Shown here piece after piece: positions 2,953 through 22,284 of a DNA stretch of 64,000 bases (the first letter of the stretch is position 1; the number at the start of each line of letters is the position of its first letter). The stretch lies in assembly GCA_020062745.1 (NCBI GenBank), contig JAGUVT010000014.1, positions 23,521 to 87,520 on the forward strand, read 5' to 3'. Origin of the DNA: Deltaproteobacteria bacterium. Lineage in GTDB: Bacteria; Bacillota; Desulfotomaculia; Desulfotomaculales; JAGUVT01. The notes beneath the pieces were generated by a model, which made no database searches, was not told the origin of the DNA, and saw only the letters and a list, made by a program, of their open reading frames with translations. The position numbers were made by a program, and so were the translations under genes.

Positions 2953-2965
2953 GGGGTTCTCCTTT

Positions 2966-4501: not shown

Positions 4502-4520
4502 ATATGAAACCTCCAGTCTG

Positions 4521-4925: not shown

Positions 4926-4958
4926 CCCTCCCTTATTTATTAAAATATATCCATTTTT

Positions 4959-6656
4959 TTAAAATATAACCTGCTGCTCGTATTCGCCAAAGACTTCTCT
5001 TAACACGCCGCATATTTCTCCCAGCGTGGCATAATTTCTCACCGCTTCAATAAAGATGGGCATTAAATTATCCTTGCCTGCCGCTGCTTTGCGCAACCCG
5101 GACAGAATTGATTCCACCCTGGCATTGTCTCTTCCGGCCCGTAACTTTTTCAATTTTTCCGCCTGGCGCTCGCCGACGGTCAGGTCTACTTTCAACAGGT
5201 CTTTCGGTTTCTCCGGCGGCATTACGAATTTATTGACACCGATGACCACCTTCTGGCCCGACTCAATATCTTGCTGATATTTATAAGCGCTGTTGTGGAT
5301 TTCCCGCTGCATAAAGTCCAGAGCTTTTGTCGAACCGCCCAATTCGTCGATTTTGCTGATATACTGTTGTGCTTTTTCCTCCAACTGGCCGGTCAGGTTT
5401 TCCATAAAGTAAGAACCGCCCAGTGGATCCACAGTATCGGCGACACCAATTTCATAGCCGACCACCTGTTGGGTACGCAGGGCGATTAATACCGATTCTT
5501 CAGTCGGCAGGGCCAGGGCTTCGTCCCGGGAGTTGGTGTGCAGGGATTGGGTTCCTCCCAGAACGGCGCTCAAAGCCTGGAACGCCACCCGCATGATATT
5601 TACATCGGGCTGCTGGGCGGTTAGAGTACAGCCGGCAGTTTGGGTATGGAACCGTAACATGCACGGGCGGGGATTTTTGGCCCCGAACCGTTCTTTCATG
5701 ATTTTCGCCCATAAGCGGCGGGCAGCCCGGAACTTGGCTATTTCTTCAAAGAAGTTGAGGTGGGCGTTGAAGAAGAAAGACAACCTGCCGGCAAAATCAT
5801 CTATGTTCAATCCGGCTTTAACGGCCGCATCTACGTAGGCGATACCGTTTGCCAGGGTGAACGCGACTTCCTGAGCGGCAGTGGATCCGGCTTCTCTGAT
5901 ATGATAACCGCTGATGCTGATCGTATTCCAGGCCGGTATTTCTTTGGCGCAATAAGCAAAGATATCGGTGATCAGGCGCATGGAGGGCTCCGGTGGCAGA
6001 ATATAAGTGCCTCTGGCGATATACTCCTTCAAGATGTCATTTTGGATAGTGCCATTTAGTTTTGACGGCTCTACTCCCTGTTTCTCAGCAACTGCAATAT
6101 ACATGGCCAGTAAAATGGCGGCCGGTGCGTTAATGGTCATGGAGGTGCTTACTTTATCAAGAGGTATTTGGTCAAATAGGGTTTCCATATCCATGATGGA
6201 GTCGATGGCTACCCCTACTTTGCCGACTTCCCCGCTGGCCAGCGGATGATCGGAATCATATCCGATCTGGGTGGGCAAATCGAAAGCTACCGAGAGGCCG
6301 GTTTGACCCTGCTCCAACAGATAACGGAAGCGGCGGTTGGTTTCTTCCGCTGTGCCGAATCCGGCGTACTGGCGCATGGTCCACAACCGCCCGCGGTACA
6401 TGTTCGGCTGTACTCCGCGGGTAAAAGGATACTCGCCGGGCAATCCCAGATCCTGCATATAATCAAAATCAGCGTCCGGCGTATAGAGACACTCAATTGG
6501 CACCCCTGAGTCGGTGCTGAAGTCCGCCTGCCGTTCGGGACGTTTTTTTAAGGTTGTTTCCAGTCTGGTTTGCCAGGCCTCTTTGAGAGCAGCAATTTCT
6601 TTTAGTTTTTCTTGATTAAACAAAACCTTCCTCCTTTCTTTTCTCCCCTTCGTCAA
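4959..6656 (-). CDS. mcmA: Methylmalonyl-CoA mutase, catalytic (N-terminal, substrate-binding) subunit; no fused B12-binding domain
   Basis: The canonical MCM signature is intact: RQYAGF (Tyr89), [14 protein letters not shown] (Gln197/Arg207) and SGYH (Tyr243/His244), in P. shermanii numbering. The protein ends at ~565 aa, before where the cobalamin domain would start. The start is more likely TTG 6623 (AGGAGG 6 nt upstream) than TTG 6656. Confidence 0.92.
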
Positions 6657-7523
6657 TCAAGCCAAAAGTTTTCTAATCATCTCCGGTACTTCGGACGGCA
6701 TTTCGGCTACCAGGGCGCCGGCTTCGGCAAGGGCTTTTACTTTCCCCTCGTAAGTTCCTTTACCTCTTCTGATAATTGCTCCGGCGTGACCCATCCGTTT
6801 TTCCGGGGGGGCGCTCTTGCCGGCAATATAAGCTACCACCGGCTTGGTCATCTCTTTAATATAAACCGAGGCTTCTTCCTCGGCGTTGCCGCCGATTTCG
6901 CCAATCAACACAACAGCTTTTGTTTCCGGATCGGCTTCAAAAAGTTTTAGCACGTCAATAAAAGTAAGACCCACAATGCGGTCTCCGCCCATACCGACAG
7001 CAGTGGATTGACCGAACCCGGCTGCAATCAAGTTTCCTGCGATCTCGTAAGTTAAAGTTCCGCTGCGGGATACCATTCCCACCGGACCGGGCATGAAAAA
7101 CTGGTTGGGCGGTATGCCTATTTTGCATTTACCGGAAGAAACAATACCAAACGTGTTGGGCCCGATGAGGACGGCCTTCTTCCGCTGGGCATAGGCTATA
7201 AACTCCATTTCGTCCTGTACCGGAATATGTTCAGTGATCACTACCACAGTGCCGATTCCCGCCTCCAGGGCTTCCAGGACGGCATCTTTGGCGAAGGCGG
7301 CAGGGATAAAGATTACCGACGCATCGACCTGATGTTCTTGTAAAACCGCCCGTACCGTGTCGTAAACCGGTATGTCTTCAAATTTGCTGCCGCCTTTCCC
7401 CGGCGCCACGCCGGCTACAACCTTCGTGCCATAAGCCAACATTTGCCTGGTGTGAAAAGAACCTTGCTTACCAGTAATACCCTGGACCATAACACGGGTA
7501 TTTTGATCAACAATAATGGCCAC
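6657..7523 (-). CDS. sucD: Succinyl-CoA synthetase alpha subunit
   Basis: 288 aa with [12 protein letters not shown] and the phosphohistidine loop MGHAGAI. GTG start. Confidence 0.93.
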
Positions 7524-7543
7524 TAATAAGACAACCCCTTTAA

Positions 7544-8674
7544 CTAAAGACTTCCTGCCGGTACCAGTGCAGCCAGTTCTACCGCCTTGGCTGCCGCCTC
7601 GTCCATATTCGTGTAAGCTTCAATCCCCTGTTCCCGCAAAATACGCCTTCCTTCCTCCTGGTTGGTACCCACCAGCCTGATTACCACCGGTACAGGGATG
7701 CCGTGCTCTTTTTTTACCTTTGCGAAGGCGCCGGCAACATCATCGCACCGGGTAATACCGCCGAATATGTTAATAAAAATTACTTTCGGATCTTTCGCCA
7801 GCAAAATTTCTAAAGCTTTGGCAGTAGCCTCCATATCGGTTCCGCCGCCTACATCCATAAAATCGGCCGGCGCGCCGCCGTAACGCTGGATTATATCCAG
7901 GGTGCTCATGGTAATGCCAGCGCCGTTTGCCATTACGGCAATGTCCCCCTCCAGTTCAACATATGAAATGCCGAGGTCCTGGGCCAGTTTTTCTGCTTCG
8001 GTTTGTTCTTCTATATATGGAATGTCTTTCTGCCTGAACAGGGCTTCAGAGTCAATGATTACCTTGGCGTCAGCCGCAATAATTTTTTCTCCGCAGAATA
8101 CCAACGGGTTAATCTCAACCAGTATAGCATCTTTCTCCTGAAATATTTTATATGCCGCCAGAATAATATTAAGCAGCTCTTTTCCCTGCCTGCTGCCTAC
8201 ATCCAGACCCAGCCGGCGAACAATGTTGCGGGCAATAAAAGGGTGTATCCCGAGTTCCACATCGAGGTGTACTTTGACAATTTTATTTTCAGGCACTTCT
8301 TCAATATCCATGCCCCCCTGGCTGGAAGCAATGATTACCGGTTTCTTAGCTCCTCCGTCAATCGTGACGGACAGGTAAAACTCCCGGTCGATATGCAACT
8401 TTTCTTCGATCAGCAGCTTTTCTACCGTATGCCCCTCGATTTTCATGCCTAACAATTCCCGGGCAGCTTTTTTAGCCTCTGCCGACGTGTCGGCAAATTT
8501 AATGCCGCCGCCTTTTCCCCGTTTACCTGAAAGAACCTGTGCTTTGATTGCTACCGAACCGATTTCCGTAGCAACCCAGGCTGCTTCATAAGCAGTGGTA
8601 ACCACTCTTCCTTTTGGCACCCGCAGGCCAAAGCGGCTGAAAAGTTCCTTTCCCATGTATTCAAATATTCTCAC
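7544..8674 (-). CDS. sucC: Succinyl-CoA synthetase beta subunit (ATP-grasp)
   Basis: 376 aa with N-terminus [12 protein letters not shown] and an ATP-grasp plus ligase-CoA domain order. GTG start, adjacent to sucD. Confidence 0.93.
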
Positions 8675-8711
8675 TGCCTAATTCTTCCCCTCCGGTTATT
8701 TATTAATACAA

Positions 8712-9830
8712 TTAACGAGGTTCAAGTTCTACCTCCTTATAGGTAGTCAGAGGCAATTTTTCCTCCCGGTCTTTACCCGGGATGTAATCGAACAGGTCCT
8801 GAACCTTTTTACCAACAGCCCTGAATATAATGGAAATGGGCAGTTCGCTGGGACAGGCGCTTTCACACTGGCCGCACCCAATGCAACTCATACCCATGTG
8901 ATTAAGTCTGGTCAGATGGAACAGCACTGTATCGGTGGGCATTTCAATTATGCCCTTGCGGGAAGCCCATTTAATATATTTTTCCGGTTCATGATCGAAA
9001 ACAGGACCTTCAAAAACACATTGCCGGCAAAAACACAACGGGCAGGCCCGGCGGCAGTTCTGACAGCGGAGACAGGTGGCCAGTTCGGCCGTCAATGCCT
9101 CTATGTTATCGAACTTCCGGTCGAACTCATGAAAAACCCTTTCTTTTTCTGCCGCCCGATTTTCCTTCAAACGGGCAATCAGAGTCAGCCTTTCAGCCGG
9201 CATTTCTATTTCCTCCAAAGCTAAATTTTCTTTGAGCATGGAAGCAATTTCATCCGGCATGGAAATGACGAATTGCTCATTCAACCCTACCCACCCGATT
9301 GTCAGATCAACATTTTCCGGCACAATCTGGTCGCAAGTCCGGCAGCAATGCCGGATTGTAACGTTGCCCGTCCCAATGTTTTCCCCTTTTGCGGCCTGGT
9401 TTATCCAAACGTCCTGGGTAAGCAGGTTTTTACCTGCCATCCGGGAGTAATCTGTGGGATTAAAAGTACCCAAACAATCTACCCCGATTAATAATAAGTG
9501 ATCGAGGGAAGCCTGATTTAATTTGACCAGTTCTACCAGCGCCCGTGCTTCACAGGGACGCAGCACGACCCCGATTTTCTCTTCTGGATCGGTGAAAGTG
9601 AGATCGGAAACATGCCTGGCTGCATTAGCCAGGCTGACGGGAGCCAGCGGAGCAACTGCCGCAATCCGGTCGGCTTCTTTCACCAGGGTGGAAACCACGC
9701 TGTTTTTAGAAGTTACTTCCTGGGGAACCAGTAATGAGTCAACTGCTTTTTCAGTTAATAAGGCACGAAAGAAGGATAACAAAGCAGTGCCAGGATTTTG
9801 CCCGGTAAATTTTAACGACATGTTTTTCAT
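8712..9830 (-). CDS. FrhB/FdhB-family-like iron-sulfur (flavo)protein with two C-terminal [4Fe-4S] ferredoxin motifs
   Basis: The track ORF is 8712..9860. I prefer ATG 9830 (MKNMSLKF...), which has GAGGT 7 nt upstream. Motifs CLRCQNCRRACP and CIGCGQCESACP are present. The N-terminal two thirds resemble the F420-hydrogenase/formate-dehydrogenase beta-subunit fold. That family assignment was made by eye only. Confidence 0.65.
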   Translation of the reverse strand: MKNMSLKFTGQNPGTALLSFFRALLTEKAVDSLLVPQEVTSKNSVVSTLVKEADRIAAVAPLAPVSLANAARHVSDLTFTDPEEKIGVVLRPCEARALVELVKLNQASLDHLLLIGVDCLGTFNPTDYSRMAGKNLLTQDVWINQAAKGENIGTGNVTIRHCCRTCDQIVPENVDLTIGWVGLNEQFVISMPDEIASMLKENLALEEIEMPAERLTLIARLKENRAAEKERVFHEFDRKFDNIEALTAELATCLRCQNCRRACPLCFCRQCVFEGPVFDHEPEKYIKWASRKGIIEMPTDTVLFHLTRLNHMGMSCIGCGQCESACPSELPISIIFRAVGKKVQDLFDYIPGKDREEKLPLTTYKEVELEPR

Positions 9831-9847
9831 TAAATATACCTCGCTGC

Positions 9848-10339
9848 TTAAATTTCCCACTGCATTTTAAGTGGATTGGGCCCCAATTTTTTCAAGGCAT
9901 CTACCATCTGCTGCACTGTTTCCCCGAACAGCTTTCCTTCTGAAGCACTGATAAATCTAAACCAGACCCGCTCCTCCGGAATGCCGAATTGTTTTAAAAT
10001 GGTTTTGACCACGGCAATTTTACGCCTGGCCTTGAGATTACCACTAACATAGTGGCACTCGCCAGCGTGTCACCCTCCTACCAATACCCCATCGACTCCT
10101 TCCAAAATTGGCTTTAAAATATAGAGAGGGTCTACCGAACCGGTACACATAACCCGGATAATCCTGATATTGGGGGGATACTGAATGCGGGAAGTGCCTG
10201 CCAGATCGGCTCCGGTATAGGTACACCAGTTACAGAAAAGGGCTATGATTTTCGGTTCAAACTCTTGCTCTGTTTGTGATTCGAAAACTGCTTCTGCCGG
10301 TTGCAAAGGCACAATACCTCCTTTAGCCAAGAGCAGCAT
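9848..10339 (-). CDS. mvhD: MvhD/FlxD-like electron-transfer protein, predicted selenoprotein (UGA-Sec at 10070-10072); 163 aa when read through
   Basis: The track stops the ORF at TGA 10070-10072 (89 aa). The same frame continues for 73 more codons to TAA 9848-9850: ...GVLVGG-U-HAGECHYVSGNLKARRKIAVVKTILKQFGIPEERVWFRFISASEGKLF.... This matches the MvhD core (FCNWCTYTGADLAG...RVMCTG...GGCHxGDCHY...SASEG). The start may be GTG 10312 (AAGGAGG upstream). Confidence 0.75.
10023..10067 (-). promoter_or_regulatory. SECIS-like stem-loop directly downstream of the in-frame UGA
   Basis: Thirteen nt after the UGA is the hairpin UGCCACUA-UGU-UAGUGGUA (10039-10057, GU in the apical loop). It is stacked on a lower helix CGCUGGC / GCCAG(G)CG (10061-10067 pairing with 10023-10030). 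Confidence 0.55.
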
Positions 10340-13181
10340 CTGCCATGGCTATAATTTGTTGTTTGGCAAAACCTTTTTGCTGTGATGCCCCGCTGGGACA
10401 GGATGCCACACAGGCGCCGCAGCCCTGGCAAAGCACCTCGTGCACACGGGCGATCATCCCGTTTTCCCTGTCCAGATAGCGGGCGTCATAAGCACAAACC
10501 GCAACGCAGAGACCGCATCCCTTGCAGCAATCCTCGTCCACTGTAGCCACAATGCCGAGGCTTTCCAGACGGTCTTTGGATAAAAGGGTTACCGCCCGCA
10601 CTGCGGCTGCATTAGCCTGGGCTATCGACTCGCCGAGCAGTTTCGGCGAATGGCCCAGACCGCACAGGTAAATGCCGTCGGCAGCAAAGTCTACCGGGCG
10701 GAGTTTCATGTGCGCTTCAGCAAAAAACCTGTCTGCCGTCAGCGCCACCTTGAATAACCAGCTTAACTTTTCGTTATCACTACGTGGTGCCACACCAGTG
10801 CTCAAAACCAGCAAATCGGCGTCTAAGGATACTTGTTCCCCCAAAACCGGGTCATTTACCTGCAGAGTAAGATGCGAGCCGGAAGCAGTAACTGACGGTT
10901 TATTTTCAAGGTCGTAACGGATGAAAATCACCCCTTTCGACCTGGCCTTTTTATAGTATTTTTCCATGAAGCCGTACATCCGGACATCGCGGTAAAGAAT
11001 GAAAACGTTGGCCGCCGGATTTATTTCTTTGATTTTAAGGGCGTTTTTTATGGCATGGGAACAACAAATCCGGCTGCAGTAAGGACGCCCTTCCTGTCTT
11101 GAACCGACGCACTGGATCATGACTATGTTTTTAACCCCCGGCAGTTCGTTTCCCACTATTTTATGTTCCAGTTCGGTTTGGGTCAATACAGACGGGTGTT
11201 CTCCGTACATGTACTCCTCCGGCCTCGCTTCCCGGGCGCCGATAGCCATGATTACGACTCCATGGGTCAGCTCTCTGATTTCTCTGCCCAGCTTTACTTT
11301 TGTGCGGTAATTGCCAACATAACCCGATACTTCCTTGATTTCGGCTCCTGTGAGCACCGTTATCCGGGGATTTTCCTGTAATTGGTTAACCAGTCGACCT
11401 AATAAAACCTGCGGATTGTTACCCTGGATCGTGTAAAAAAGGTTCCGGGCATTTCCTCCCAGTTCCTTTTCTTTTTCTACCAAGTAGACGTCAAATCCCT
11501 GACCGGCCAGAGACAAAGCTGCAGTTATCCCCGCCATTCCCCCGCCGGCCACCAGGGCCCGCCTGTTGACCTCAATAAAAGAGGTGGCAACCGGTTCCAA
11601 CAAGCAGGCCTTGGCTACTGACATGGAAACCAGTTCTTTGGCTTTCTCGGTAGCTGCCGCCGGCTGGTCGCGGTGAACCCATGCGGAATGTTCACGGATG
11701 TTGGCCTGTTCAAACAAATGGGGATTAAGGCCAGCCTCCCGCATGCTGCTCATAAACAGGGGAGCATGAGTGCGGGGAGTACAAGAGGCTACCACCAGAC
11801 GGTTTAAACCATATTCGATAATCCGCTCTTTTATCTTCTGAATGTTATCCTGCGAGCAGGTGAATAGAAATTCTTCAGCGTATTTGACGTTTCGCAGGCC
11901 GCCGGCATATTTGACTACTTCCGGCACGTTGATTATGCCGCCGATATTTATGCCGCAATTACACACGAATACTCCTACCGACGGCTCTTCGTCGCTGACA
12001 TCTCTTTCCGGCGGATATTCTTTAGCAGCGGTTAAAGAACCGCGGGCAGTACTCAAAAGACAGGAGGCATGAGCTGCCGCAGCACTGGATTCCACTACCG
12101 TTTCCGGAATGTCTTTTGGTCCGCAAAAAGCGCCGCTGACAAATACGCCCTCTTTTGATGTGCAGCCCGGTTTAAATTCATCAGGCTGGCAGAAGCCGTA
12201 TTCATTTAGTTTGATTCCCGTTCTTCCAGCTAGTTCCCCCGCGGAAGCAGACGGACGCAGGCCAACTGACAGAACAACCAGGTCAAAATCTTCCTCGGCA
12301 AATTTTCCGTTAGCTTTACGGTACTTGATCCGGAGGGTCTTTTCTTGTTGTAATTCCCTCACCGTCGAGACGATACATTTTTCATAGCGCACCCCATGTT
12401 CCAGCCTGGCCCTGTCGTAGTACTTCTCAAAATCCTTGCCGAAAGCCCGCACATCTATGTAAAATATGGCAGTCTCCAGGCCGGGTACGTGTTCCTGGGC
12501 GATAATGGCCTGCTTGGTCGCATACATACAGCAAACCGCCGAGCAGTATTCACTTCCCTTATCGGTACTGTCGCGGGAACCGATACACTGGATGAAGGCG
12601 ATCTTTTTGGGTTCTGTTTTATCCGAGGGACGTACCAGGTGTCCCTGGAAAGGACCGGAAGCGCTCAACATGCGCTCGAACTGGATGCTGGTCAGCACAT
12701 TGGGGTAAATTCCCCACCCGAACTCTTGCCTTAGTCTGGCGTCAAAGGGTTCGAACCCGGGGCTTAAGATGACTGCGCCGGCTGCCAGTTCTATCTCTTC
12801 ATCGCTCATCGAATGGTCAATTGCTGCAGGCAGGCAGACCTTTGTGCATTCCAGGCATTCTGAACATACACCGCAGTTCAGGCACCGTTCGGCTTCTTTT
12901 TTGGCCTGCTGCAGGGTATAGCCGGCGCTGACCTCGCTGAAATTTTTAGCTCTCTCCACCGGTTCGGCGCAAGAAACAGGCTCGGGCTCAAACCGCGGGA
13001 TCTCATCCCCGGCGAAGCGAAGCGGGGCTACCTTTTCCTCTGATACCTTAAAGGTGTTCTTTAACTCCAGTCCCTGTAAATACTGGTGAATGGACTCAGC
13101 CGCCAGTTTGCCGGCTGCCACCGCTTCAATTACCGTCTTCGGTCCGGTCACGGCGTCGCCGCCGGCAAAAACGCCGGGCAA
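10323..13181 (-). CDS. HdrL-like giant flavo-Fe-S protein, C-terminal ORF (end of GltD-like module, remainder of first HdrA unit, second HdrA unit, C-terminal 2x[4Fe-4S] ferredoxin)
   Basis: 952-aa ORF that begins inside the GltD FAD motif (L)PGVFAGGDAVTGPKTVIEAVAAGKLAA. HdrA motifs QCIGSRD...CSAVCCMYA and QCVGSRQ...CSRICCSHA are present, as is a second dinucleotide fold VAGGGMAGITAAL. The terminal motifs are CKGCGLCVAVC and CQGCGACVASCP. The frame is open upstream of the annotated TTG. Confidence 0.85.
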   Translation of the reverse strand: MPGVFAGGDAVTGPKTVIEAVAAGKLAAESIHQYLQGLELKNTFKVSEEKVAPLRFAGDEIPRFEPEPVSCAEPVERAKNFSEVSAGYTLQQAKKEAERCLNCGVCSECLECTKVCLPAAIDHSMSDEEIELAAGAVILSPGFEPFDARLRQEFGWGIYPNVLTSIQFERMLSASGPFQGHLVRPSDKTEPKKIAFIQCIGSRDSTDKGSEYCSAVCCMYATKQAIIAQEHVPGLETAIFYIDVRAFGKDFEKYYDRARLEHGVRYEKCIVSTVRELQQEKTLRIKYRKANGKFAEEDFDLVVLSVGLRPSASAGELAGRTGIKLNEYGFCQPDEFKPGCTSKEGVFVSGAFCGPKDIPETVVESSAAAAHASCLLSTARGSLTAAKEYPPERDVSDEEPSVGVFVCNCGINIGGIINVPEVVKYAGGLRNVKYAEEFLFTCSQDNIQKIKERIIEYGLNRLVVASCTPRTHAPLFMSSMREAGLNPHLFEQANIREHSAWVHRDQPAAATEKAKELVSMSVAKACLLEPVATSFIEVNRRALVAGGGMAGITAALSLAGQGFDVYLVEKEKELGGNARNLFYTIQGNNPQVLLGRLVNQLQENPRITVLTGAEIKEVSGYVGNYRTKVKLGREIRELTHGVVIMAIGAREARPEEYMYGEHPSVLTQTELEHKIVGNELPGVKNIVMIQCVGSRQEGRPYCSRICCSHAIKNALKIKEINPAANVFILYRDVRMYGFMEKYYKKARSKGVIFIRYDLENKPSVTASGSHLTLQVNDPVLGEQVSLDADLLVLSTGVAPRSDNEKLSWLFKVALTADRFFAEAHMKLRPVDFAADGIYLCGLGHSPKLLGESIAQANAAAVRAVTLLSKDRLESLGIVATVDEDCCKGCGLCVAVCAYDARYLDRENGMIARVHEVLCQGCGACVASCPSGASQQKGFAKQQIIAMADAALG

Positions 13182-13234
13182 ATCAGTAGCTAAAGTTTCC
13201 TGAACAGCTGTAATATTGCCGCTCCGGCTTATAT

Positions 13235-14743
13235 TTACCGGGAGATCAAGAGGCAGGTCTGGTTTTGACCCACGGCCAGGAGCACTGTATCCGCTTCCAG
13301 GAAAAACTCGCTTCCTTTTACCGGTATGGGAGCGAGCCGGCCGCTGGCGTCGGGCTCACTCAGTTCATTCCGGAGGCATTCCATGCGCGTCAGCCTGCCG
13401 TTTTCGCCGTGGAAAGCCTTGGGAGCCGTCAACATCAGGAATGCGATGCCTTCTTCTTTGGCTTCTCTAATTTCTTCCGGAAGGGCCGTGATTTCCGCCT
13501 CGGTTCGCCGGTATACGATGGTAACGTTTTCTGCGCCCAGGCGCAATGCCGTACGGGCACAATCCATGGCTGTGTTTCCACCGCCGATTACAGCTACCTG
13601 CCGGCCGACTTCTACTTTTTCACCCAGGGCTACGCTACGCAAGAAATCTAGGCCGTGCATCACTCCGTTAAGTTCTTCTCCTGGCACACCCAACCGGGTG
13701 CCCTTGTGGGCGCCGATAGCCAGAAAAACCGCCTGGTAAGCTTCATCCTGTAGACTTTGCAGGGTGAAGTCCTTACCCAGCCCGGTGTTATAACGAATCT
13801 CAAGCCCCATTTTAATCAGCAGTTCGACTTCCAACTGCACCCACTTTTTGGGCAACCGGTACTCGGGGATACCCACGCGCATCATCCCGCCAGCCACCGG
13901 TAAGGCTTCAAATACTGTTACCGTATAGCCTTTCTTAAGCAACTGGTAAGCTGCTGACAAACCAGCCGGGCCGGCGCCGACAACAGCCACCTTTTTGTTT
14001 TTCGCTTCTTCGCTTGCCGGCAGAGGCAGTTCACCCAAGTTATTATAGGCAAAGTCTGCCGCCACCCGTTTAAGATGCATAATATTAACCGGCTTATCAA
14101 TACTGCTCCGGTGGCACCCGGTCTGGCAGGGGTGCGTACAGATCCGTCCACAGGCTGCCGGGAAAGGATTGTCCCGGTAAACCATCTGCCACGCTTCCAT
14201 AAGTTTACCTGTTTTGATCAACTGGATGTATCCCTGTGCGTTTACACCTGCCGGGCAGGCTGCCCGGCAGGGCGGTATGCCTGTTTTTTCAATGGCGAAG
14301 GCGTTGGGGGTAGCCTGCGGGTAGAACTTGTAAATAGCCTTTCGCTGTGCCAGTCCGGCGTCAAAGTCGCTGGTAACTTCCACCGGACAGGCCCGGGCGC
14401 AGTCGCCGCATCCGGTACATTTTTCCAAGTCCACATACCGGGCCTTTTTCTTCAATTTAACCCGGAAGTTGCCCGGCTCACCGCTTAAGCTCCGGACTTC
14501 GGCGCCAGTCAGGACCTGGATATTGAGGTGCCGCCCGGTATCAACCAGCCGTGGGGACATGGTGCACATGGCGCAATCGTTGGTCGGAAAGGTTTTGTCC
14601 AGCCGGGCCATGGTGCCGCCGATAGCCGTCTGGTTTTCTACCAGGTAGACTTTAAAACCGGCTTCGGCCAGGTCCAGGGCCGACTGCATGCCGCTAATAC
14701 CGCCTCCGACAACCATTACGGCGCCGATTTTTTCATTATTCAT
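13235..14743 (-). CDS. HdrL-like giant flavo-Fe-S protein, N-terminal ORF (HdrA N-terminus plus inserted GltD/NfnB-like NAD(P)H module), ends prematurely
   Basis: 502 aa with VVGGGISGMQSALDLA...LDKTFPTNDCAMC (HdrA N-terminus), then VAVVGAGPAGLSAAY...VIGGGNTAMDCART (glutamate-synthase-small-subunit-like module). SD AAGGAAGG precedes the start. It stops 9 codons after the conserved ADTVLLAVGQ. The rest of the domain continues in the -1 frame. Confidence 0.85.
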   Translation of the reverse strand: MNNEKIGAVMVVGGGISGMQSALDLAEAGFKVYLVENQTAIGGTMARLDKTFPTNDCAMCTMSPRLVDTGRHLNIQVLTGAEVRSLSGEPGNFRVKLKKKARYVDLEKCTGCGDCARACPVEVTSDFDAGLAQRKAIYKFYPQATPNAFAIEKTGIPPCRAACPAGVNAQGYIQLIKTGKLMEAWQMVYRDNPFPAACGRICTHPCQTGCHRSSIDKPVNIMHLKRVAADFAYNNLGELPLPASEEAKNKKVAVVGAGPAGLSAAYQLLKKGYTVTVFEALPVAGGMMRVGIPEYRLPKKWVQLEVELLIKMGLEIRYNTGLGKDFTLQSLQDEAYQAVFLAIGAHKGTRLGVPGEELNGVMHGLDFLRSVALGEKVEVGRQVAVIGGGNTAMDCARTALRLGAENVTIVYRRTEAEITALPEEIREAKEEGIAFLMLTAPKAFHGENGRLTRMECLRNELSEPDASGRLAPIPVKGSEFFLEADTVLLAVGQNQTCLLISR

Positions 14744-14847
14744 AAGCGAAACCTTCCTTAGGTGAATTTAGATGAACTTTGCAAAACTACTCAACAACCG
14801 ACTACCTTTGATTAGGAAAAATTTCCTCTTTTCTATTTTATTAAAAA

Positions 14848-14870
14848 CTGACTGCTGACTGCTGACTGCT
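14848..14870. repeat. 7-bp tandem repeat (CTGACTG x3.3) in the 140-bp hdrB-hdrL intergenic gap
   Basis: Direct reading gives ctgactg ctgactg ctgactg ct at 14848-14870. Confidence 0.85.
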
Positions 14871-14883
14871 TAATAGCCGGACA

Positions 14884-15741
14884 TTAGCCCGCTAAAGACA
14901 GTGAACGCAACAGCGGAAACGGATCCACCAGATGTTTCGGCCACCAGTTCCGTTCTTCCGGCATGCCGAAAGCCAGACCGATTAGTTCGGTAAAGAAAAA
15001 TGCTGGGATGCCGCTAAATGGTTTCTTTCTTCTCATTTCCAGGTTGGACTGGCAGAGCGGACAGGCAGTAACAATGGCCATGGCTCCGGCTTCGGCGGCC
15101 ATATCTAAAAGAAGCCCGACCATTTCCTGGACGGCGTCGCTTTTAACCAGGCTTAAACTGGCTCCGCAACAATCGGTCTTATACGACCACATTAAAGGTT
15201 CTGCTCCCAGGCTGGAAACTATTTTATCCAAAATAACCGGATTTTCTGTTTGGTCAAAGCCGGTTATTTCCGGCGGACGAACCAGCAGGCAACCGTAATA
15301 ACAAACCACCTTCAAACCGGTAAGCGGCTTTTTTACCAGACTTGCCATGGTGTCCGCGCCGACCTGGTAATAAATAGTTTCCAGCAATGACTGAACGTTA
15401 ACTGTGCCGTTAAATTTAAAGCCCACCACTTCTTCCACTTTTTTACGTTCCACTTCATTTTCTTGCAGGACATAAGCAGCAGTTTTTAAACGGTTGTAGC
15501 AGGCCGAGCAGGGGGCAACCAGACATTGCGCCGCTTCTTCCTGGGCCAGGGCCAGGTTACGGGCCGGTAAGGCCAGGGCCAGCAAATGATTGATGCTATG
15601 GGCGGAAGTAGCGCCGCAGCAATTCCAGTCCTGCAGTTCTGCCATTTCCAGACCCAGGTGACGGCATACCGTCCTGGCCGAAAGGTCATATTCTTTAGCC
15701 GTGGCTTCCAGCGAACACCCTGGATAATAAGCTATTTTCAA
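14884..15741 (-). CDS. hdrB: Heterodisulfide reductase subunit B-like protein (two CCG domains)
   Basis: 285 aa with two CCG repeats: YYPGCS...NCCGATS...APCSACY and YYGCLL...DCCGASL...TACPLCQ. TTG start with AAAGGTGG upstream. Confidence 0.9.
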   Translation of the reverse strand: MKIAYYPGCSLEATAKEYDLSARTVCRHLGLEMAELQDWNCCGATSAHSINHLLALALPARNLALAQEEAAQCLVAPCSACYNRLKTAAYVLQENEVERKKVEEVVGFKFNGTVNVQSLLETIYYQVGADTMASLVKKPLTGLKVVCYYGCLLVRPPEITGFDQTENPVILDKIVSSLGAEPLMWSYKTDCCGASLSLVKSDAVQEMVGLLLDMAAEAGAMAIVTACPLCQSNLEMRRKKPFSGIPAFFFTELIGLAFGMPEERNWWPKHLVDPFPLLRSLSLAG

Positions 15742-15765
15742 TTAATTATACCACCTTTTAGAGCT

Positions 15766-16326
15766 TTATTGTTTGGCGGCTTCTTTGAAAATTTGCCGGA
15801 CTTCTTTTAGCCGTTTAATTCTCTTGGGCAAAAAAGCAAACTTCCCTTTTTTAAACATCTTCAGTCCGATATCCAGGTCGGCAAACAGTGTCCTGCTTCT
15901 CAGCTTGTACTGCGCCATCATTGACAGTTCATGCACTCGCCCGTCGCGGCGCACTGAATTTAAAAAAGCGTTATGAAACAGGGGGATATTTTTCTCTCCG
16001 GATAGTGCCCGCTCTTTAACGGCCATCTCGCGCAGGGCATCCGTTACAGCAGCAATTTTGATGCCGTTCGGGCAGCGGGCGCCGCACGTTTCGCAGCCGG
16101 AACAAAGCCAGATAAAAGAACTGTTAAGGATGCGCTCTTTGAGGCCGTACTGAATCATTCGTACTACCTGGTTGGGGTGATAATCGGCATGCTCTGCTAC
16201 CGGACAGCCGGAAGAACACTTTTGGCACTGGTAACACAACTCAATGGCTTGACCGGACCGTTTTTTAATTTCCTGTATAAAGGATAGATCCAGCATAACG
16301 GGTCCTTTCGAAGTCATGATCTGCAC
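15766..16326 (-). CDS. hdrC: Heterodisulfide reductase subunit C-like protein (2x[4Fe-4S])
   Basis: Motifs CYQCQKCSSGCP and CSGCETCGARCP are present. The true start may be ATG 16296 (AAAGGA 6 nt upstream). Confidence 0.88.
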   Translation of the reverse strand: MQIMTSKGPVMLDLSFIQEIKKRSGQAIELCYQCQKCSSGCPVAEHADYHPNQVVRMIQYGLKERILNSSFIWLCSGCETCGARCPNGIKIAAVTDALREMAVKERALSGEKNIPLFHNAFLNSVRRDGRVHELSMMAQYKLRSRTLFADLDIGLKMFKKGKFAFLPKRIKRLKEVRQIFKEAAKQ

Positions 16327-16343
16327 TATTAATCACTCTCTTT

Positions 16344-16979
16344 TTAATAATCATTTTCATGAGGGATATCATTATTGGGGAAATTGCCACCGAAAGCATC
16401 ATTGGCCACCCTCAAGGGCATGTTCTCAATTACCATTTCGTAAATGGCTTCTGTTCCCAGTTCAGGGTAGGCGATCACCCGGGCATCTTTTATACACTTG
16501 GAAATCAGCGCGGCTGCTCCGGAAAAAGTAACAAAATAAACAGCTTTATATTTTTTCATGGCTTCAATTACTTTTTGTGACCGGTACCCCTTGCCGATGG
16601 TCCCCTTTAAACCTAAAGCAAGAAGCCTGGGAGTGTAAACATCCATTCGTTCACTGGTGGTCGGTCCGGCCGAACCGATTACATGGCCGGGCCTGGCCGG
16701 AGTCGGTCCGGCATAAAAAATAACCTGGCCTTTGAGATCAATTGGCAACTCTTTACCTTGATCCAAAAGTTCGCTTAGCTTTTTATGAGCAGCATCACGG
16801 GCTGTATAAAGTCTGCCGCTCAAGGCAACCCGGTGGCCAGCTCTTAAGATTTCTACGACTTCATCAGTTAAAGGGGTTGAAAGTTTAATCTGATCCACCT
16901 TAGAACCATCTCCTCCATCTCCCTTTTTATCTCTTTCTTTTAATGTTTGGGGCAAGCTTTTTATTTGTATACTCTTCAT
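16344..16979 (-). CDS. fumB: Class I fumarate hydratase, beta (C-terminal domain) subunit
   Basis: Core sequence IKLSTPLTDEVVEILRAGHRVALSGRLYTARDAAHKKL...GPTTSERMD. ATG 16979 overlaps the alpha-subunit stop (ATGA). An alternative start is GTG 16898 (VDQIKLSTPL), preceded by GGAGATGGAGGAG. Confidence 0.88.
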   Translation of the reverse strand: MKSIQIKSLPQTLKERDKKGDGGDGSKVDQIKLSTPLTDEVVEILRAGHRVALSGRLYTARDAAHKKLSELLDQGKELPIDLKGQVIFYAGPTPARPGHVIGSAGPTTSERMDVYTPRLLALGLKGTIGKGYRSQKVIEAMKKYKAVYFVTFSGAAALISKCIKDARVIAYPELGTEAIYEMVIENMPLRVANDAFGGNFPNNDIPHENDY

Positions 16980-17821
16980 AAAATAGCACTCTTGTAGCGG
17001 CTGGCATGGCAGTTTATATTTACCGCTACCGGCAGGCTGGCTATATGGGTGGCGAAGACCTCCACATGAACGGCCAGAGCGGTAGTCTTACCGCCGATTC
17101 CCAGGGGACCTATATCCAAAGCATTAATTTCCTCCAGCAACTCCTCTTCCAGACAAGCTATATCGGCCATCCTGCTTTTCTTTCCCACGGGCCTGAGCAA
17201 GGCTTCTTTTGCAATCAGCGCGGCTTTTTCAAAATTTCCACCGATACCTACCCCCAGCACTACCGGCGGGCAAGCATTAGGACCAGCTTCTTTTACCACG
17301 TTAATGACGAACTTCTTAACTCCTTCCACACCTTCCGACGGTTTCAACATTTTAATGGCGCTGGTATTTTCACTACCGCACCCCTTGGCCAGAACAGTTA
17401 GCTTTAAATTTTCACCCGGTACTATATTGGTATGAATTATTGCTGGAGTATTATCTCCGGTATTCTTCCGTTCCAACGGATGTCTTACTATTGACTTGCG
17501 CAGGTAGCCTTCGCGGTACCCTTTCCTTACCCCCTCGTTAATCGCCTTATAAAAATCTCCACCAGTGACATGAACGTCCTGTCCAAGTTCTATAAAAACA
17601 ACAGCAAAACCCGTATCCTGGCAGATTGGGATACCTTCCGTACGGGCGATTTCGGCATTTTTAATCAGATTTTGGATAATCCTTTTCCCTGGAATGGACA
17701 CTTCTTGTTCATATGCTTTTTGAAAACTATCCAGGACATCTTTTCCAAGATTAAAGTTGGCTTCTTGGCATAGTCGCGCTACAGCTTCAATGATTAAATT
17801 GGTGTCGATAGATTTTATGAT
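16976..17821 (-). CDS. fumA: Class I fumarate hydratase, alpha (N-terminal domain) subunit; probable non-canonical start codon
   Basis: The track ORF starts at GTG 17701. The frame stays open for 40 more codons, IIKSIDTNLIIEAVARLCQEANFNLGKDVLDSFQKAYEQE, which looks like the conserved fumarase N-terminus. A strong SD AAGAGGAGGGGG sits just upstream of ATC 17821 / ATA 17818. The PICQDTG motif follows. Confidence 0.8.
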   Translation of the reverse strand: MIKSIDTNLIIEAVARLCQEANFNLGKDVLDSFQKAYEQEVSIPGKRIIQNLIKNAEIARTEGIPICQDTGFAVVFIELGQDVHVTGGDFYKAINEGVRKGYREGYLRKSIVRHPLERKNTGDNTPAIIHTNIVPGENLKLTVLAKGCGSENTSAIKMLKPSEGVEGVKKFVINVVKEAGPNACPPVVLGVGIGGNFEKAALIAKEALLRPVGKKSRMADIACLEEELLEEINALDIGPLGIGGKTTALAVHVEVFATHIASLPVAVNINCHASRYKSAIL

Positions 17822-17865
17822 GCCCCCTCCTCTTTACGAAGCGCCGACATCCCTTATTTAATAAT

Positions 17866-17893
17866 AATATAAAATTTTAATCTTGTTAAGCAA
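17866..17893 (-). promoter_or_regulatory. Candidate sigma-A-type promoter of the fumarase/methylmalonyl-CoA supra-operon
   Basis: On the minus strand: TTGCTT (17893-17888), a 16-nt spacer, then TATATT (17871-17866), about 40 nt upstream of the fumA SD. The -35 lies inside a tandem ATTTGCTTAA repeat. Confidence 0.4.
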
Positions 17894-17905
17894 ATTTAAG
17901 CAAAA
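17886..17905. repeat. Tandem 10-bp direct repeat (TTAAGCAAAT / TTAAGCAAAA) overlapping the candidate operon promoter
   Basis: Direct reading of 17886-17905. On the minus strand it reads tTTTGCTTAA-ATTTGCTTAA. Confidence 0.7.
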
Positions 17906-18058
17906 TGCATACCACTTTTTGGCCTGTCTAATTTAACCATACCCACGCATTAGTCATCATCAACCCAACAGTTAAAGAACCTCCGGTTTTTCATTTTATC
18001 TAAAAGCTAATTTTCGACGAAAACAAAAGAGAATCCTTCTAAAAGTTTAAATTTTTAA

Positions 18059-18099
18059 CGAACAAGTGTTTTAAAGATAGTCTTAGTTTATGTTATAAT
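18059..18099 (+). promoter_or_regulatory. lexA promoter with SOS (Cheo) box
   Basis: CGAACAAGTGTTTT (18059-18072) fits the Gram-positive consensus CGAACRNRYGTTYC at 13 of 14 positions. An extended -10 TGtTATAAT lies at 18091-18099, and the box abuts the -35 position. Confidence 0.65.
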
Positions 18100-18134
18100 T
18101 ATAAAAATGACTTACCATTTAAGGAGATGAAAAA

Positions 18135-18743
18135 ATGAAAACGGCTCTTACCCCCAAAGAGATAGCCATTCTGACCGTAATCAGAAAAAATATTATCCAG
18201 AAAGGATATCCTCCTTCGGTGCGAGAAATTGGTCAGGAAGTGGGCTTGAGTTCCAGCTCCACCGTGCATGGCTACTTAAAAAAATTAGAGCAAAAAGGCC
18301 TCGTGCGCCGGGATGCTACTAAGCCCAGAGCTATAGGACTTTTGACAAGCCATAGAAAAGAGGACAGACTTGTTGAAATTCCGGTATTAGGGCGGGTAGC
18401 TGCTGGCTTACCTCTTCTGGCTGTAGAAAATAGAGAGGATGTTTTTTCCTTGCCGGTACAATTTACTGGCAAAGGAGAATTTTTCATCTTGACTGTACAT
18501 GGGGAAAGTATGATCGATGCCGGTATTTTTGATGGCGATATGGTAGTGGTAAGGCGGCAGCCAACAGCAGAAAACGGCGAAATAGTTGTTGCCTTGTTAG
18601 AAGAGGAAGCTACTATTAAAAGGTTCTTTAAAGAAAAGGGATGGATAAAATTACAACCCGAGAATAGTCTGATGGAACCGATCATGGTGCGAGAAATAGA
18701 TATACTGGGTAAGGTAGTCGGTCTTTTAAGAAAAATAGCTTAA
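18135..18743 (+). CDS. lexA: LexA repressor
   Basis: 202 aa with an N-terminal wHTH (GYPPSVREIG), the AG cleavage site (VAAGLPL) and the S24 peptidase Ser/Lys pair (GESM...KRF). SD AAGGAG precedes the start. Confidence 0.95.
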   Translation: MKTALTPKEIAILTVIRKNIIQKGYPPSVREIGQEVGLSSSSTVHGYLKKLEQKGLVRRDATKPRAIGLLTSHRKEDRLVEIPVLGRVAAGLPLLAVENREDVFSLPVQFTGKGEFFILTVHGESMIDAGIFDGDMVVVRRQPTAENGEIVVALLEEEATIKRFFKEKGWIKLQPENSLMEPIMVREIDILGKVVGLLRKIA

Positions 18744-19634
18744 GTTGCCTTGACTTTTGATAAAATTGATAAATGCTTCGACGGCAAACTCGCCGATACC
18801 ATGCTTATTGCAAATCAGATAAAGGTAGCGGTTAAGGTCTATCCCGGTTAACGGTACTTCTTTTACCAACTCTAATTTCAATGCTTCTTTTACCGCATGC
18901 CGCGAAACTATGCTTACTCCTAAACCGGCTTGAACTGCCGTTATTACCGCCCTGGTGCTTCCTAATTCCATGACAATTGGCATTTCTTCCAGCACAATGT
19001 TTCTTTGGGCCAGTTTTTGTTTTAAAGTCCGGCGTGTTCCGGAGCCGGACTCACGTATAATCATCGATTCATTCTTTAACTCATGTATGTCAACCGCACA
19101 ATCACCAACCCAATGATGGTGAGGGTGGGCTATTAATATCAGGCAATCCAGTATCCACGGCAAACATTTTATGCCTTCCTTGTTGATAGCAGTACCAGTA
19201 ACACCGAGGTCAATCTCCCTTTCATGTACCCAGCGCCCCACCTGGATACTTCCGGCTATCTGTAGAGTAATTTTAATCCCAGGATATTTTTCCTTAAATC
19301 CTCCGATTAGCAGAGGTAATATGTATTCGCCAGGCGTATTACTGGCTCCTACTACCAGTTGACCGGTTTTTAGCCCTTTTAGTTCATCTATACCGGCCTT
19401 AATCTTGTGGTAGTTTTTTAACATTTGTTTGGCTTCAAGGTAAAGAAGCCGTCCTGCTTCAGTAAGGGTAACTTTTTTATCTCCCCGTTTTAACAAGGTA
19501 ACCTGGAGGTTTTCCTCCAGGGCTTTTATTTGAAAGCTTACTGCCGGCTGGCTCATGTATAATTGGTGGGCAGCTTTCGTAAAGCTTTGCAATTCAGCTA
19601 CCCATAGGAATACTTCCAGCTGTTTTAAATTCAT
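18726..19634 (-). CDS. LysR-family transcriptional regulator
   Basis: 302 aa with N-terminal HTH MNLKQLEVFLWVAELQSFTKAAHQLYMSQPAVSFQIKALE and a LysR substrate-binding domain. Confidence 0.9.
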   Translation of the reverse strand: MNLKQLEVFLWVAELQSFTKAAHQLYMSQPAVSFQIKALEENLQVTLLKRGDKKVTLTEAGRLLYLEAKQMLKNYHKIKAGIDELKGLKTGQLVVGASNTPGEYILPLLIGGFKEKYPGIKITLQIAGSIQVGRWVHEREIDLGVTGTAINKEGIKCLPWILDCLILIAHPHHHWVGDCAVDIHELKNESMIIRESGSGTRRTLKQKLAQRNIVLEEMPIVMELGSTRAVITAVQAGLGVSIVSRHAVKEALKLELVKEVPLTGIDLNRYLYLICNKHGIGEFAVEAFINFIKSQGNLSYFS

Positions 19635-19709
19635 TTTAAAAACACCAACCGGTTTAGTTTTATTTAAGAATTCGCTATGATGACCTGAAAAACCTCCTGA
19701 CCTTCGACA

Positions 19710-20945
19710 TTATTTTGCAGTTTTTAATACTTCCTTAGCTGCAGAAAGTATAGCCAGCTTCACATGTTCCCTGGACAGACCGCCTTGCAAGTAAATTACA
19801 TAGGGCGGCCGTAATGGCCCGTCAGCGCTCAATTCCAAGGATGCCCCCTGGACAAAATTACCAGATGACATAACCACAGGGTCTTCATAACCTGGTACTT
19901 TCCCTGGTTCCGGGATAAAAAAACTATTTACCGGTGAAGCCTTTTGTAAACCATAACAGAAAGCAATCATCATTCCTGGCGATTCCAGGCGAATTGCCTG
20001 CACCAGATCAGTACGCTCTGCGTCATAGGCAGGCAAAACCACAAAGCCTAACCGGGAAAAAAATCGGGCCGCAAAAACCGCACCTTTCAGGGCCTCAGAT
20101 ACAATATGCGGAGCCATAAAGAGACCCTGAAAAAATAGACGCTGGCAGTCTGGCGAAGGACCTAATTCTCCAGCAATACCAGGAGCCGACCAGCGGCTTG
20201 CAGCCATTTCTACAAAACGGTTTCGTCCGACCACATAACCACCGGTAGGTGCCAGCCCGCCGCCAGGGTTTTTTATTAAGGAACCGGCAACCAGATCTGC
20301 CCCGGCATCAGTCGGTTCTTCGGCTTCAACAAACTCTCCGTAACAATTGTCGACCATTATTACTACCGGAGGATGGATCTCTTTAATAAAACGAATTGCT
20401 TCCCTCATCTGGTTTATTGTCAGCGAGCGCCTCCAGCGGTAGCCGCAAGAACGTTGCAGAAAGACCATCCGGGTATCGTCATTTACGGCTGATTTGATAC
20501 CGTTCCAGTCAATACTGCCGTCCGGTAAAAGTTCTACCTGCCGGTAATGAATACCAAAGTCAAGCAATGAACCTGGCGTTTTACCCTTTAAGCCGATTGT
20601 TTCAGCTAGAGTGTCATAAGGTGTCCCCTGAACGGCCAGGATTTCGTTACCTGGTCTTAAGATTCCGTAAAGGCAAAGAGCTATGGCATGAGTTCCAGAA
20701 ATAATTTGCCCCCGTACCAGGGCGCTTTCCGTCCGGAAGACTCCGGCATAAACTTCTTCTAAAACCCTTCTTCCTTCATCTCCGTAGCCATATCCGGTAG
20801 AGCCCTTTAAATGAAAATCACTTACTTTTGCCTTGCGAAAGGATTCCAAAACCCGACCCTGGTTTTTTAATGCCGTTTCCTCAATTCTCCGGTAAACCGG
20901 CCGGACATCCTCTTCAACTTCTTCAGCCAAGGCATCTAGATTCAT
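19710..20945 (-). CDS. YnbB/aluminium-resistance-family PLP-dependent enzyme (Cys/Met-metabolism lyase-like)
   Basis: 411 aa with KGSTGYGYGDEGR near the N-terminus, characteristic of this family. The position near hfq/miaA matches many Firmicutes. Confidence 0.8.
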   Translation of the reverse strand: MNLDALAEEVEEDVRPVYRRIEETALKNQGRVLESFRKAKVSDFHLKGSTGYGYGDEGRRVLEEVYAGVFRTESALVRGQIISGTHAIALCLYGILRPGNEILAVQGTPYDTLAETIGLKGKTPGSLLDFGIHYRQVELLPDGSIDWNGIKSAVNDDTRMVFLQRSCGYRWRRSLTINQMREAIRFIKEIHPPVVIMVDNCYGEFVEAEEPTDAGADLVAGSLIKNPGGGLAPTGGYVVGRNRFVEMAASRWSAPGIAGELGPSPDCQRLFFQGLFMAPHIVSEALKGAVFAARFFSRLGFVVLPAYDAERTDLVQAIRLESPGMMIAFCYGLQKASPVNSFFIPEPGKVPGYEDPVVMSSGNFVQGASLELSADGPLRPPYVIYLQGGLSREHVKLAILSAAKEVLKTAK

Positions 20946-20963
20946 GATGCTCTCCGTAAAATT

Positions 20964-21872: not shown

Positions 21873-21996
21873 CCCGCACCAGGCAGATCAATAACATTAT
21901 ACGCCTGCCCCGGGCGTTAGTGACCAAAAAAAACAGGTGTTTCGTAAAGGCAAAGCTCGTCTTTCACCAACAAGAAAGGCTGCTTTTTTCTTAAAA

Positions 21997-22236: not shown

Positions 22237-22284
22237 TGGAGTTTCCCTCCATATCTATTTTAATCTATTTTGGGTTATTACTTT

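Follow-up and report, generated by a model that had tools for sequence, protein, structure and literature searches.

HdrL proteins, i.e., 'large' fusions of the HdrA and glutamate synthase types, were defined in Desulfobacterium autotrophicum HRM2 as HdrL1-3 (PMC2702500). An HdrABC/HdrL cluster, Sfum_0819-0824, is found in Syntrophobacter fumaroxidans (PMC5947623). HdrL joins HdrA-type FAD and iron-sulfur domains to an NAD(P)H-binding GltD/NfnB-like module, and its clusters have mvhD directly downstream together with hdrB, hdrC and an FdhB/FrhB-like iron-sulfur protein. NAD(P)H-linked electron bifurcation or confurcation has been put forward as a proposed role only (PMC2702500, PMC5947623); in the literature we searched, no biochemical characterisation of any HdrL was found.

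We analysed a window of 64,000 nucleotides (49% GC), the whole stretch of DNA considered here, which carries an hdrL gene on the minus strand. Unlike known HdrL genes, it is broken in this record by a 1-nt deletion. When one A is added to the run caaaac (T4 at 13263-13266 on the plus strand), a single open reading frame of 1473 amino acids without internal stops results. Pfam finds FAD_oxidored, Pyr_redox_2, Fer4 and Fer4_20 in this repaired protein. Its match to HdrA of the methanogen HdrABC-MvhAGD (PDB 5ODC, chain A; E = 6e-193) comprises four collinear stretches that together span the HdrA fold two times: residues 9-153 pair with HdrA residues 146-290, and further stretches lie at 627-844, 919-1091 and 1291-1465. 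In contrast to 5ODC HdrA, the first copy lacks the N-terminal domain, and an NfnB-like module of about 470 residues is inserted between HdrA residues 290 and 293.

Residues 156-560 align end to end with NfnB, the large subunit of NADH-dependent ferredoxin:NADP+ oxidoreductase (PDB 4YLF chain B, 5JCA chain L), and with GltD, the glutamate synthase small subunit; both dinucleotide-binding motifs and the GGD motif lie inside the alignment. NfnB residues 46-461 (4ylf_B) pair with query residues 158-558 in one stretch (E = 6e-105) that spans the break, and this match, together with Fer4_20 and a complete Pyr_redox_2, marks a fused NAD(P)H-binding module. NfnB and GltD are free-standing subunits, whereas here the module is internal to a larger protein. 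In the predicted HdrL, the FAD domain of an HdrA-type flavoprotein thus carries the NfnB/GltD-like NAD(P)H module as an insertion, and a second copy of HdrA and then a ferredoxin domain come after it.

The neighbouring genes agree with those of known HdrL clusters (Table 1). Of 78 related loci, 65 have mvhD next after hdrL, and the FrhB/FdhB-like gene is a conserved neighbour in 27 loci. Unlike known clusters, the module has no separate hdrA gene and is embedded in an operon of the methylmalonyl-CoA pathway, with fumarase on one side and succinyl-CoA synthetase on the other, a placement not seen in 78 other loci. The mmc cluster of P. thermopropionicum contains no hdr genes and no such module (PMC6046458).

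Table 1. Features of the hdr module and of the frame break, with positions in the window.
Feature	Position	Strand	Description
hdrC-like 4Fe-4S dicluster gene	15766..16326	-	Pfam Fer4_8 and Fer4_17; conserved neighbour
hdrB-like gene	14884..15741	-	Two CCG domains (Pfam, 2 stretches); immediately upstream of hdrL in the same operon; conserved there in closest relatives
hdrL 5' fragment	13235..14743	-	Codons 1-493, 9 out-of-frame codons (NQTCLLISR) and TAA stop; first part of HdrA FAD domain, 4Fe-4S motif, about three quarters of NfnB/GltD-like module; from ORF list, translation and Pfam
A4 run (T4 on plus strand)	13263..13266	-	One A fewer than sibling contigs
hdrL 3' part	10323..13262	-	Shifted frame, codons 495-1473 and stop; listed ORF begins only at TTG 13181; end of NfnB-like module (GGD motif), remainder of first HdrA core, second HdrA copy, C-terminal 2x[4Fe-4S] domain
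Private substitution	13005	-	Within hdrL, 257 nt 3' of the deletion; L001/L002/L085 have GAA (E580), the window GAT (D); 3 nt from GATC
mvhD/FlpD gene	9848..10339	-	Start overlaps hdrL stop by 17 nt; in-frame TGA 10070-10072 at Cys position
FrhB/FdhB-like iron-sulfur flavoprotein gene	8712..9830	-	Last gene of the hdr module; Pfam FrhB_FdhB_C, JGI gene call

The in-frame TGA of mvhD probably encodes selenocysteine, as in several MvhD proteins of Db. autotrophicum (PMC2702500). At the alignment column of this TGA, 30 relatives have a stop and 35 a cysteine. A hairpin following the UGA has z = -2.48, with 3 of 200 shuffled sequences folding as well. Neither sel genes nor a tRNA-Sec were found within the 64-kb window.

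The break lies roughly three quarters along the NfnB/GltD-like module. The minus-strand frame reads ...EADTVLLAVGQ and then runs through nine further codons to a stop at 13237-13235, so that the predicted C-terminus of the truncated product is ...LLAVGQNQTCLLISR. The next listed reading frame (952 amino acids) begins with LPGVFAGGDAVTGP. The shifted frame is, however, already open from 13358 and reads ...KPDLPLDLPVNISRSGNITAVQETLATDLPGVFAGGDA; with the added A, the junction peptide across the run in the full-length protein is LLAVGQKPDLPLDLPVNISR. As it stands, the window holds no single polypeptide of about 1470 residues but pieces of 502 and 952. Pyr_redox_2 is cut off in the 502-residue piece (profile positions 1-240 of 291) and complete after insertion of the A (1-291 of 291, residues 250-545). 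An earlier note, made from the window's letters and reading frames, had described a stop nine codons past the conserved ADTVLLAVGQ, a downstream frame starting inside the same GltD/NfnB-like domain, the expected continuation in the -1 frame, a cut through the FAD/NAD(P) fold and fusion to about 1473 residues by one extra A. All of this was borne out, and an intact protein of the same length is present on sibling contigs. In the protein comparison, the frame break is no chance pattern, since the repaired protein matches a 1473-residue protein called on independent public contigs at every residue but one (D580 in place of E).

The intact frame was found on two JGI metagenome contigs from different samples (L001 and L002). 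Both have an A5 run and read CAAAAACC at the site, i.e., GGT CAA AAA CCA GAC for G Q K P D, where the window reads CAAAACC. JGI contig Ga0394678_47359 (L001, L081, L082, L083) differs from window positions 323-64000 at only three of 63,678 nt, i.e., by a 1-nt gap at the A run and by single nucleotide polymorphisms at 13005 and 52750, both nonsynonymous transversions. L002, from the second, independent sample 3300007354, is identical to L001 over 6,156 nt and likewise has A5 and GAA. A sister lineage with 92% nucleotide identity (L085) has CAAAAGCC in frame, GAA at codon 580 and a reading frame of 1473 amino acids. At 52750, three other members of the GerAC cluster, from other contigs, have A37, whereas the window has D. 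The window allele is private and derived at each of the three sites. An exact look-up of the 502-residue piece in the contig index gave no match. Pattern scans of genome and metagenome contigs that allowed A4 or A5 gave no match; as they also missed the known A5 contigs, they are uninformative on allele frequencies and speak against neither allele. The best match in a search of genome contigs for related loci had 67% identity.

The earlier note had asked whether orthologues have one reading frame or two. All 120 closest homologues are single continuous proteins (median 1478 aa) with an invariant Q493, and the arrangement that the note had set against its fusion reading, orthologues split at the same place with start signals for each half, did not occur among them. 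The gene's real divergence amounts to 226 synonymous and 91 nonsynonymous codon differences (dN/dS 0.11). dN/dS is about 0.1 on either side of the break and 0.10 downstream of it, which indicates purifying selection on hdrL. Among the three changes private to the window there is no synonymous one. Together with the fact that both substitutions are transversions, this makes the window changes look unfiltered by selection when set against the dN/dS of the gene. These comparisons characterise the deletion as private to the window, with an intact allele in near-identical DNA and with the gene conserved as one reading frame under purifying selection.

As causes, the earlier note had offered sequencing error, real inactivating mutation and recoding without choosing among them. 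Recoding drops out, and of the two that remain we favour error. The organism would encode one 1473-residue HdrL within an hdrC-hdrB-hdrL-mvhD-frhB-like module, and the split would stem from the loss of one A from an A5 run, private to this sequence record. We consider it probable, if by no means certain, that this 1-nt deletion is a consensus, assembly or polishing error rather than biology. The NCBI contig that holds the window's two protein pieces is 94,232 bp long, and the JGI contig with the intact protein 94,233 bp. As the lengths differ by exactly this one base, they suggest one contig in two processing states, and the window record would then be the same contig as the longer one with A5.

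Homopolymer undercalls and substitutions beside GATC or CCWGG are a known residual error pattern of long-read consensus sequences. The single indel here amounts to a homopolymer undercall, and each of the two substitutions has a GATC or CCWGG motif no more than 3 nt away, a proximity shared by only 8.5% of window positions, although this motif adjacency was noticed post hoc. Two of the three differences are 257 nt apart (chance probability 0.024), as expected from a local consensus problem. Moreover, a real deletion would place about 2.9 kb of untranslated mRNA ahead of the coupled mvhD and the downstream scs and mcm, and such polar effects would make a viable A4 allele less likely. Import of the 13005 polymorphism from a diverged co-occurring strain (L085/P0122) was rejected, as that strain has GAA, i.e., E. 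A systematic Illumina error at 52750 ('GGT read as GGG') was also rejected: under it the window allele would be correct, yet the JGI allele recurs in the three cluster members that come from other contigs. The case is like any ordinary homopolymer frameshift of a draft genome or MAG, be it a consensus error or a young pseudogene: a short A/T run differs in length by a single base in one record, the intact allele is present in near-identical assemblies, and nothing sets it apart. The deletion most likely arose in data processing rather than in the cell.

Some points run counter to an error. Short-read consensus errors at homopolymers of 4-5 nt are rare. If the record came from a separate sample, the same assembly software and shared genomic repeats could give equal contig ends, and A4 would then be the true majority allele in that sample. 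A very recent subclone would also show the same private, derived and selection-unfiltered pattern.

The deletion may instead be a genuine, very recent null, produced when replication slippage shortened A5 to A4 in a single strain or subpopulation of a deep-subsurface Peptococcaceae-like bacterium, so that hdrL would be a young pseudogene in an allele that the assembly happened to capture; we take this possibility seriously without expecting it to hold. Spontaneous frameshifts commonly arise when a short homopolymer loses one base. The frameshift is also present in a public NCBI-derived record beyond the window, the private nonsynonymous change linked to the deletion fits a real variant haplotype, and three differences per 64 kb are compatible with microdiversity within a population, another sample (L084) showing 4 SNPs in 3.6 kb. 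Evidence against such a null comes from the intact allele, carried by the sister lineage and by two near-identical assemblies of separate samples, and from the strong purifying selection on hdrL. There is no sign of decay 3' of the break, where the sole change relative to the sibling contigs is one SNP. For natural mutation it would also be unusual that one of three private differences is an indel and that both substitutions are transversions beside GATC/CCWGG. Finally, polarity on downstream catabolic genes should be costly. That the A4 allele is real and segregates with the intact allele in a natural deep-subsurface population we regard as somewhat doubtful.

Programmed recoding, in which ribosomes shifting by -1 or RNA polymerase slipping at the A run would restore the full-length protein from A4, is very improbable. 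The required shift is -1 and located at the A run, and nothing else speaks for it. Shift direction and an A-rich site are also all that the locus shares with programmed -1 frameshifting in E. coli dnaX, which uses an A AAA AAG heptamer and a stem-loop. Here, the zero-frame sequence GGU CAA AAC CAG contains no X XXY YYZ slippery heptamer. The 113 nt downstream provide no stimulatory structure: they fold at -33.6 kcal/mol where shuffled sequences average -31.9 (z = -0.44), and 62 of 200 shuffles do equally well. An out-of-frame arrangement is not conserved either. Efficient slippage of RNA polymerase needs roughly 9 or more A/T, and the run is only 4 A long. The in-frame A5 in DNA that is 99.99% identical, the in-frame sister lineage and the single-frame homologues effectively refute recoding. 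A genuine two-gene arrangement, with halves made separately and assembling into a functional split HdrL, has a next to negligible chance and is refuted by the orthologue comparison. Nothing but the presence of two reading frames supports it, the break falls inside one continuous NfnB-type fold, and no homologue is split. There is also no credible restart signal: TTG 13181, with which the downstream frame has its earliest possible start, lies inside the fold at the cost of 27 conserved-register residues, and AGGAAA, the sole purine-rich stretch before it, ends 14 nt upstream.

The split of hdrL is hence not a special coding mechanism; it is either a routine slip in the consensus or a private mutation of very recent origin. 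It carries little biological weight in itself and should not be taken for recoding, for a two-subunit HdrL or for loss of the pathway in the organism. The gene should be annotated as one 1473-residue HdrL, or be flagged as frameshifted pending reads, and when metabolism is reconstructed from this MAG, the Hdr module should not be counted as missing. As a practical lesson, comparison with a sibling assembly that has one base more answers the question. If the A4 allele were real, a null and probably polar mutation of the hdrL module in the methylmalonyl-CoA (propionate) operon would be tolerated, and the Hdr module would be dispensable or being lost in that strain. The more interesting biology lies in the context, i.e., in an hdrCB-hdrL-mvhD-frhB-like module, with a probable selenocysteine in MvhD, placed in a propionate operon exactly at the succinate/fumarate step.

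The hdrL gene of the window is interrupted in the middle of a domain. In the window translation, the minus-strand ORF 14743..13235 runs through ...EADTVLLAVGQ into nine codons that are out of frame (NQTCLLISR) and then meets a stop. The ORF after it, 13181..10323 (minus strand), has a TTG start and begins with LPGVFAGGDAVTGP; its frame is open already from 13358 (minus strand) and reads KPDLPLDLPVNISRSGNITAVQETLATDLPGVFAGGDA. When the run C-AAAA-C (T4 on the plus strand) was lengthened by one A, a single 1473-aa ORF resulted, and the Pfam Pyr_redox_2 match, truncated before this repair (profile 1–240/291), became complete (1–291/291). The description of the split in the earlier note was accurate in every detail.

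Two JGI metagenome contigs, Ga0394678_47359 (94,233 bp, sample 3300037880) and Ga0104761_1004029 (6,156 bp, sample 3300007354), already encode the predicted repaired protein, which is recorded as P0001 (1473 aa). Both contigs carry CAAAAACC at the site of the window's CAAAACC. The first differs from window 24743..323 by one gap and one mismatch, the second shows the identical two differences, and the two samples are mutually identical over 6.1 kb. With three further pieces of Ga0394678_47359 included, the comparison covered 63,678 nt, in which only three positions differ (Table). An NCBI contig 94,232 bp long is the recorded source of both HdrL pieces; the JGI contig is exactly one base longer. 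Most simply read, the NCBI and JGI records show one contig at two stages of processing, or a single clonal population whose assemblies end at identical repeat boundaries. A near-identical strain (four SNPs in 3.6 kb) is present in a further sample, 3300007351, together with a sister lineage that is about 92% identical and keeps the operon layout. The prefix Ga0104751 recurs in the title of a 'SURF_10' MAG record, a pointer to the deep-subsurface site of the Sanford Underground Research Facility. The 120 best HdrL homologues (53–100% identity) are all single proteins of 1357–1653 aa (median 1478), continuous through the junction (Q493 in 120/120, P495 in 80/120, D496 in 100/120). Judged from these sequences, the split is not conserved.

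Aligned to the HdrA structure 5odc_A, the repaired protein matched in four collinear stretches (E = 6e-193), and residues 156–560 aligned in one piece to NfnB (4ylf_B residues 46–461, E = 6e-105) as well as to GltD and dihydropyrimidine dehydrogenase domain II. By these alignments the protein consists, in this order, of an HdrA core, a second HdrA copy and a C-terminal 2x[4Fe-4S] domain; the first core is interrupted at HdrA position about 291 by an inserted NAD(P)H module of the NfnB/GltD type. Residue 493/494, where the frameshift falls, is within the NfnB module and therefore also within the interrupted HdrA fold. The window protein shares the architecture for which HdrL was defined in Desulfobacterium autotrophicum (PMC2702500). 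By architecture and neighbourhood it is a clear HdrL member; the earlier note had called it HdrL-like. The module order hdrC, hdrB, hdrL, mvhD, frhB/fdhB-like is kept in the closest relatives and is the gene set of the S. fumaroxidans HdrABC/HdrL cluster Sfum_0819-0824, whose separate hdrA is, however, absent from the window module. The S. fumaroxidans cluster is abundantly represented at the proteome level, and electron confurcation has been proposed for it (PMC5947623). From homology and literature we propose that the window module may encode an NAD(P)H-, ferredoxin- and disulfide-linked flavin-based bifurcating complex.

Around the hdr module extends a methylmalonyl-CoA (propionate) pathway operon (window about 6657-17701, minus strand; 1970-9467 in the sister-lineage contig): fumarase alpha and beta, hdrC, hdrB, hdrL, mvhD and the frhB-like gene are followed by succinyl-CoA synthetase (scs), methylmalonyl-CoA mutase (mcm), epimerase, carboxyltransferase, malate dehydrogenase and a 5S transcarboxylase-like gene. 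The module thus lies exactly between fumarase and succinyl-CoA synthetase, the enzymes flanking the succinate/fumarate redox step. This is in contrast to the P. thermopropionicum mmc cluster, which is without hdr genes and has its succinate dehydrogenase encoded elsewhere (PMC6046458). Fumarase or scs was found within 3 kb of hdrL in none of 78 other hdrL loci; the sister lineage is the only other holder of the arrangement found. Three methylmalonyl-CoA-mutase-family gene sets occur within the 64 kb, one adjoining a cluster of CoA-transferase, acyl-CoA dehydrogenase, thiolase, hydroxyacyl-CoA dehydrogenase and enoyl-CoA hydratase, in a neighbourhood that includes a 698-aa Fer4 + CCG oxidoreductase. 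Directly downstream of a rubrerythrin gene, a 69-codon ORF encodes no more than the N-terminus of a RecQ/DEAD-type helicase and has the look of a remnant of a truncated gene; the JGI contig carries it, too.

Coordinates of features in the window and alignment of HdrL to HdrA
Feature	Position	Strand	Remark
hdrC	15766..16326	-	first in hdr module order
hdrB	14884..15741	-	between hdrC and hdrL
mvhD	10339..9848	-	directly after hdrL
frhB/fdhB-like gene	9830..8712	-	after mvhD
Difference 1	13263-13266		A run, deletion in window
Difference 2	13005		HdrL E580 (GAA) to D (GAT) in window
Difference 3	52750		GerAC-like A37 (GCC) to D (GAC) in window
HdrL stretch 1	residues 9-153		HdrA residues 146-290 (5odc_A)
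HdrL stretch 2	residues 627-844		HdrA residues 293-510 (5odc_A)
HdrL stretch 3	residues 919-1091		HdrA residues 2-174 (5odc_A)
HdrL stretch 4	residues 1291-1465		HdrA residues 468-643 (5odc_A)
Mutase set 1	4959-6656	-	
Mutase set 2	39964-41595	-	B12-binding 39539-39943
Mutase set 3	55769-57436	+	B12-binding 57443-57874
Fer4 + CCG oxidoreductase	34861-36957		698 aa
Helicase ORF	44675-44884	-	69 codons

The mvhD gene contains an in-frame TGA at 10070-10072 (VGG*HAGECHY), at the first Cys of a G-C-H-x-G-(D/E)-C-H-Y motif. Among related loci this column holds a stop in 30 and Cys in 35, and a hairpin lies 3' of the UGA (z = -2.48); from both we conclude that mvhD very probably encodes a selenoprotein with UGA as selenocysteine. 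Gene callers break it into ORFs of 89 and 54 aa.

The sister lineage (sample 3300007351, 92.3% nucleotide identity in hdrL, fumarase-hdrC-hdrB-hdrL-mvhD context) has an intact hdrL of 1473 aa, with CAAAAGCC (Q-K-P) at the break site and GAA at codon 580, and A37 is present in three other GerAC cluster members. Since these carry the other allele, all three window alleles are private and derived; none is synonymous. Between Ga0394678_47359 and the sister lineage, hdrL shows 226 synonymous and 91 nonsynonymous codon differences (dN/dS 0.11 overall, 0.10 downstream of the break), a divergence pattern indicating that the A5-restored frame is maintained by selection. The window's private changes, by comparison, seem unfiltered.

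We consider a consensus, assembly or polishing error the probable cause of the split, favoured over a null allele because the NCBI record is shorter than the JGI contig by exactly the missing base, and because two independent samples agree mutually and disagree with the window. Moreover, the deletion among the three private changes is a homopolymer undercall, and both substitutions (13005 and 52750) are transversions no more than 3 nt from GATC or CCWGG, a distance shared by only 8.5% of window positions. Two of the differences are 257 nt apart (chance probability 0.024), a spacing expected for a local consensus problem. Residual errors in long-read consensus sequences are known to show this combination of homopolymers and methylation motifs; spotted post hoc here, the pattern is a lead and no proof. 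A very recent real null allele is possible, if less probable: private, derived and unfiltered changes are also what a young subclone would show, which counts against an error. However, hdrL and mvhD overlap by 17 nt (10323-10339), suggesting translational coupling, and a real premature stop would probably exert polar effects on mvhD and the downstream scs and mcm, which should be costly. Of the causes raised in the earlier note, these two remain, whereas recoding is rejected. Near-identical DNA carries the gene in frame, zero-frame GGU CAA AAC is no slippery heptamer, and shuffled sequences fold about as well as the 113 nt downstream of the site (z = -0.44). For transcriptional slippage, four A's are too few. 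A genuine two-gene arrangement, which the earlier note had tied to orthologues split alike, is rejected because no split orthologue was found, the cut lies within one continuous fold, and the earliest downstream-frame start is TTG 13181, preceded by a badly placed purine stretch.

Private to a single record, the split amounts to an ordinary homopolymer frameshift and most likely does not exist as a biological feature. If the A4 allele were real, it would be an unremarkable young pseudogene allele.
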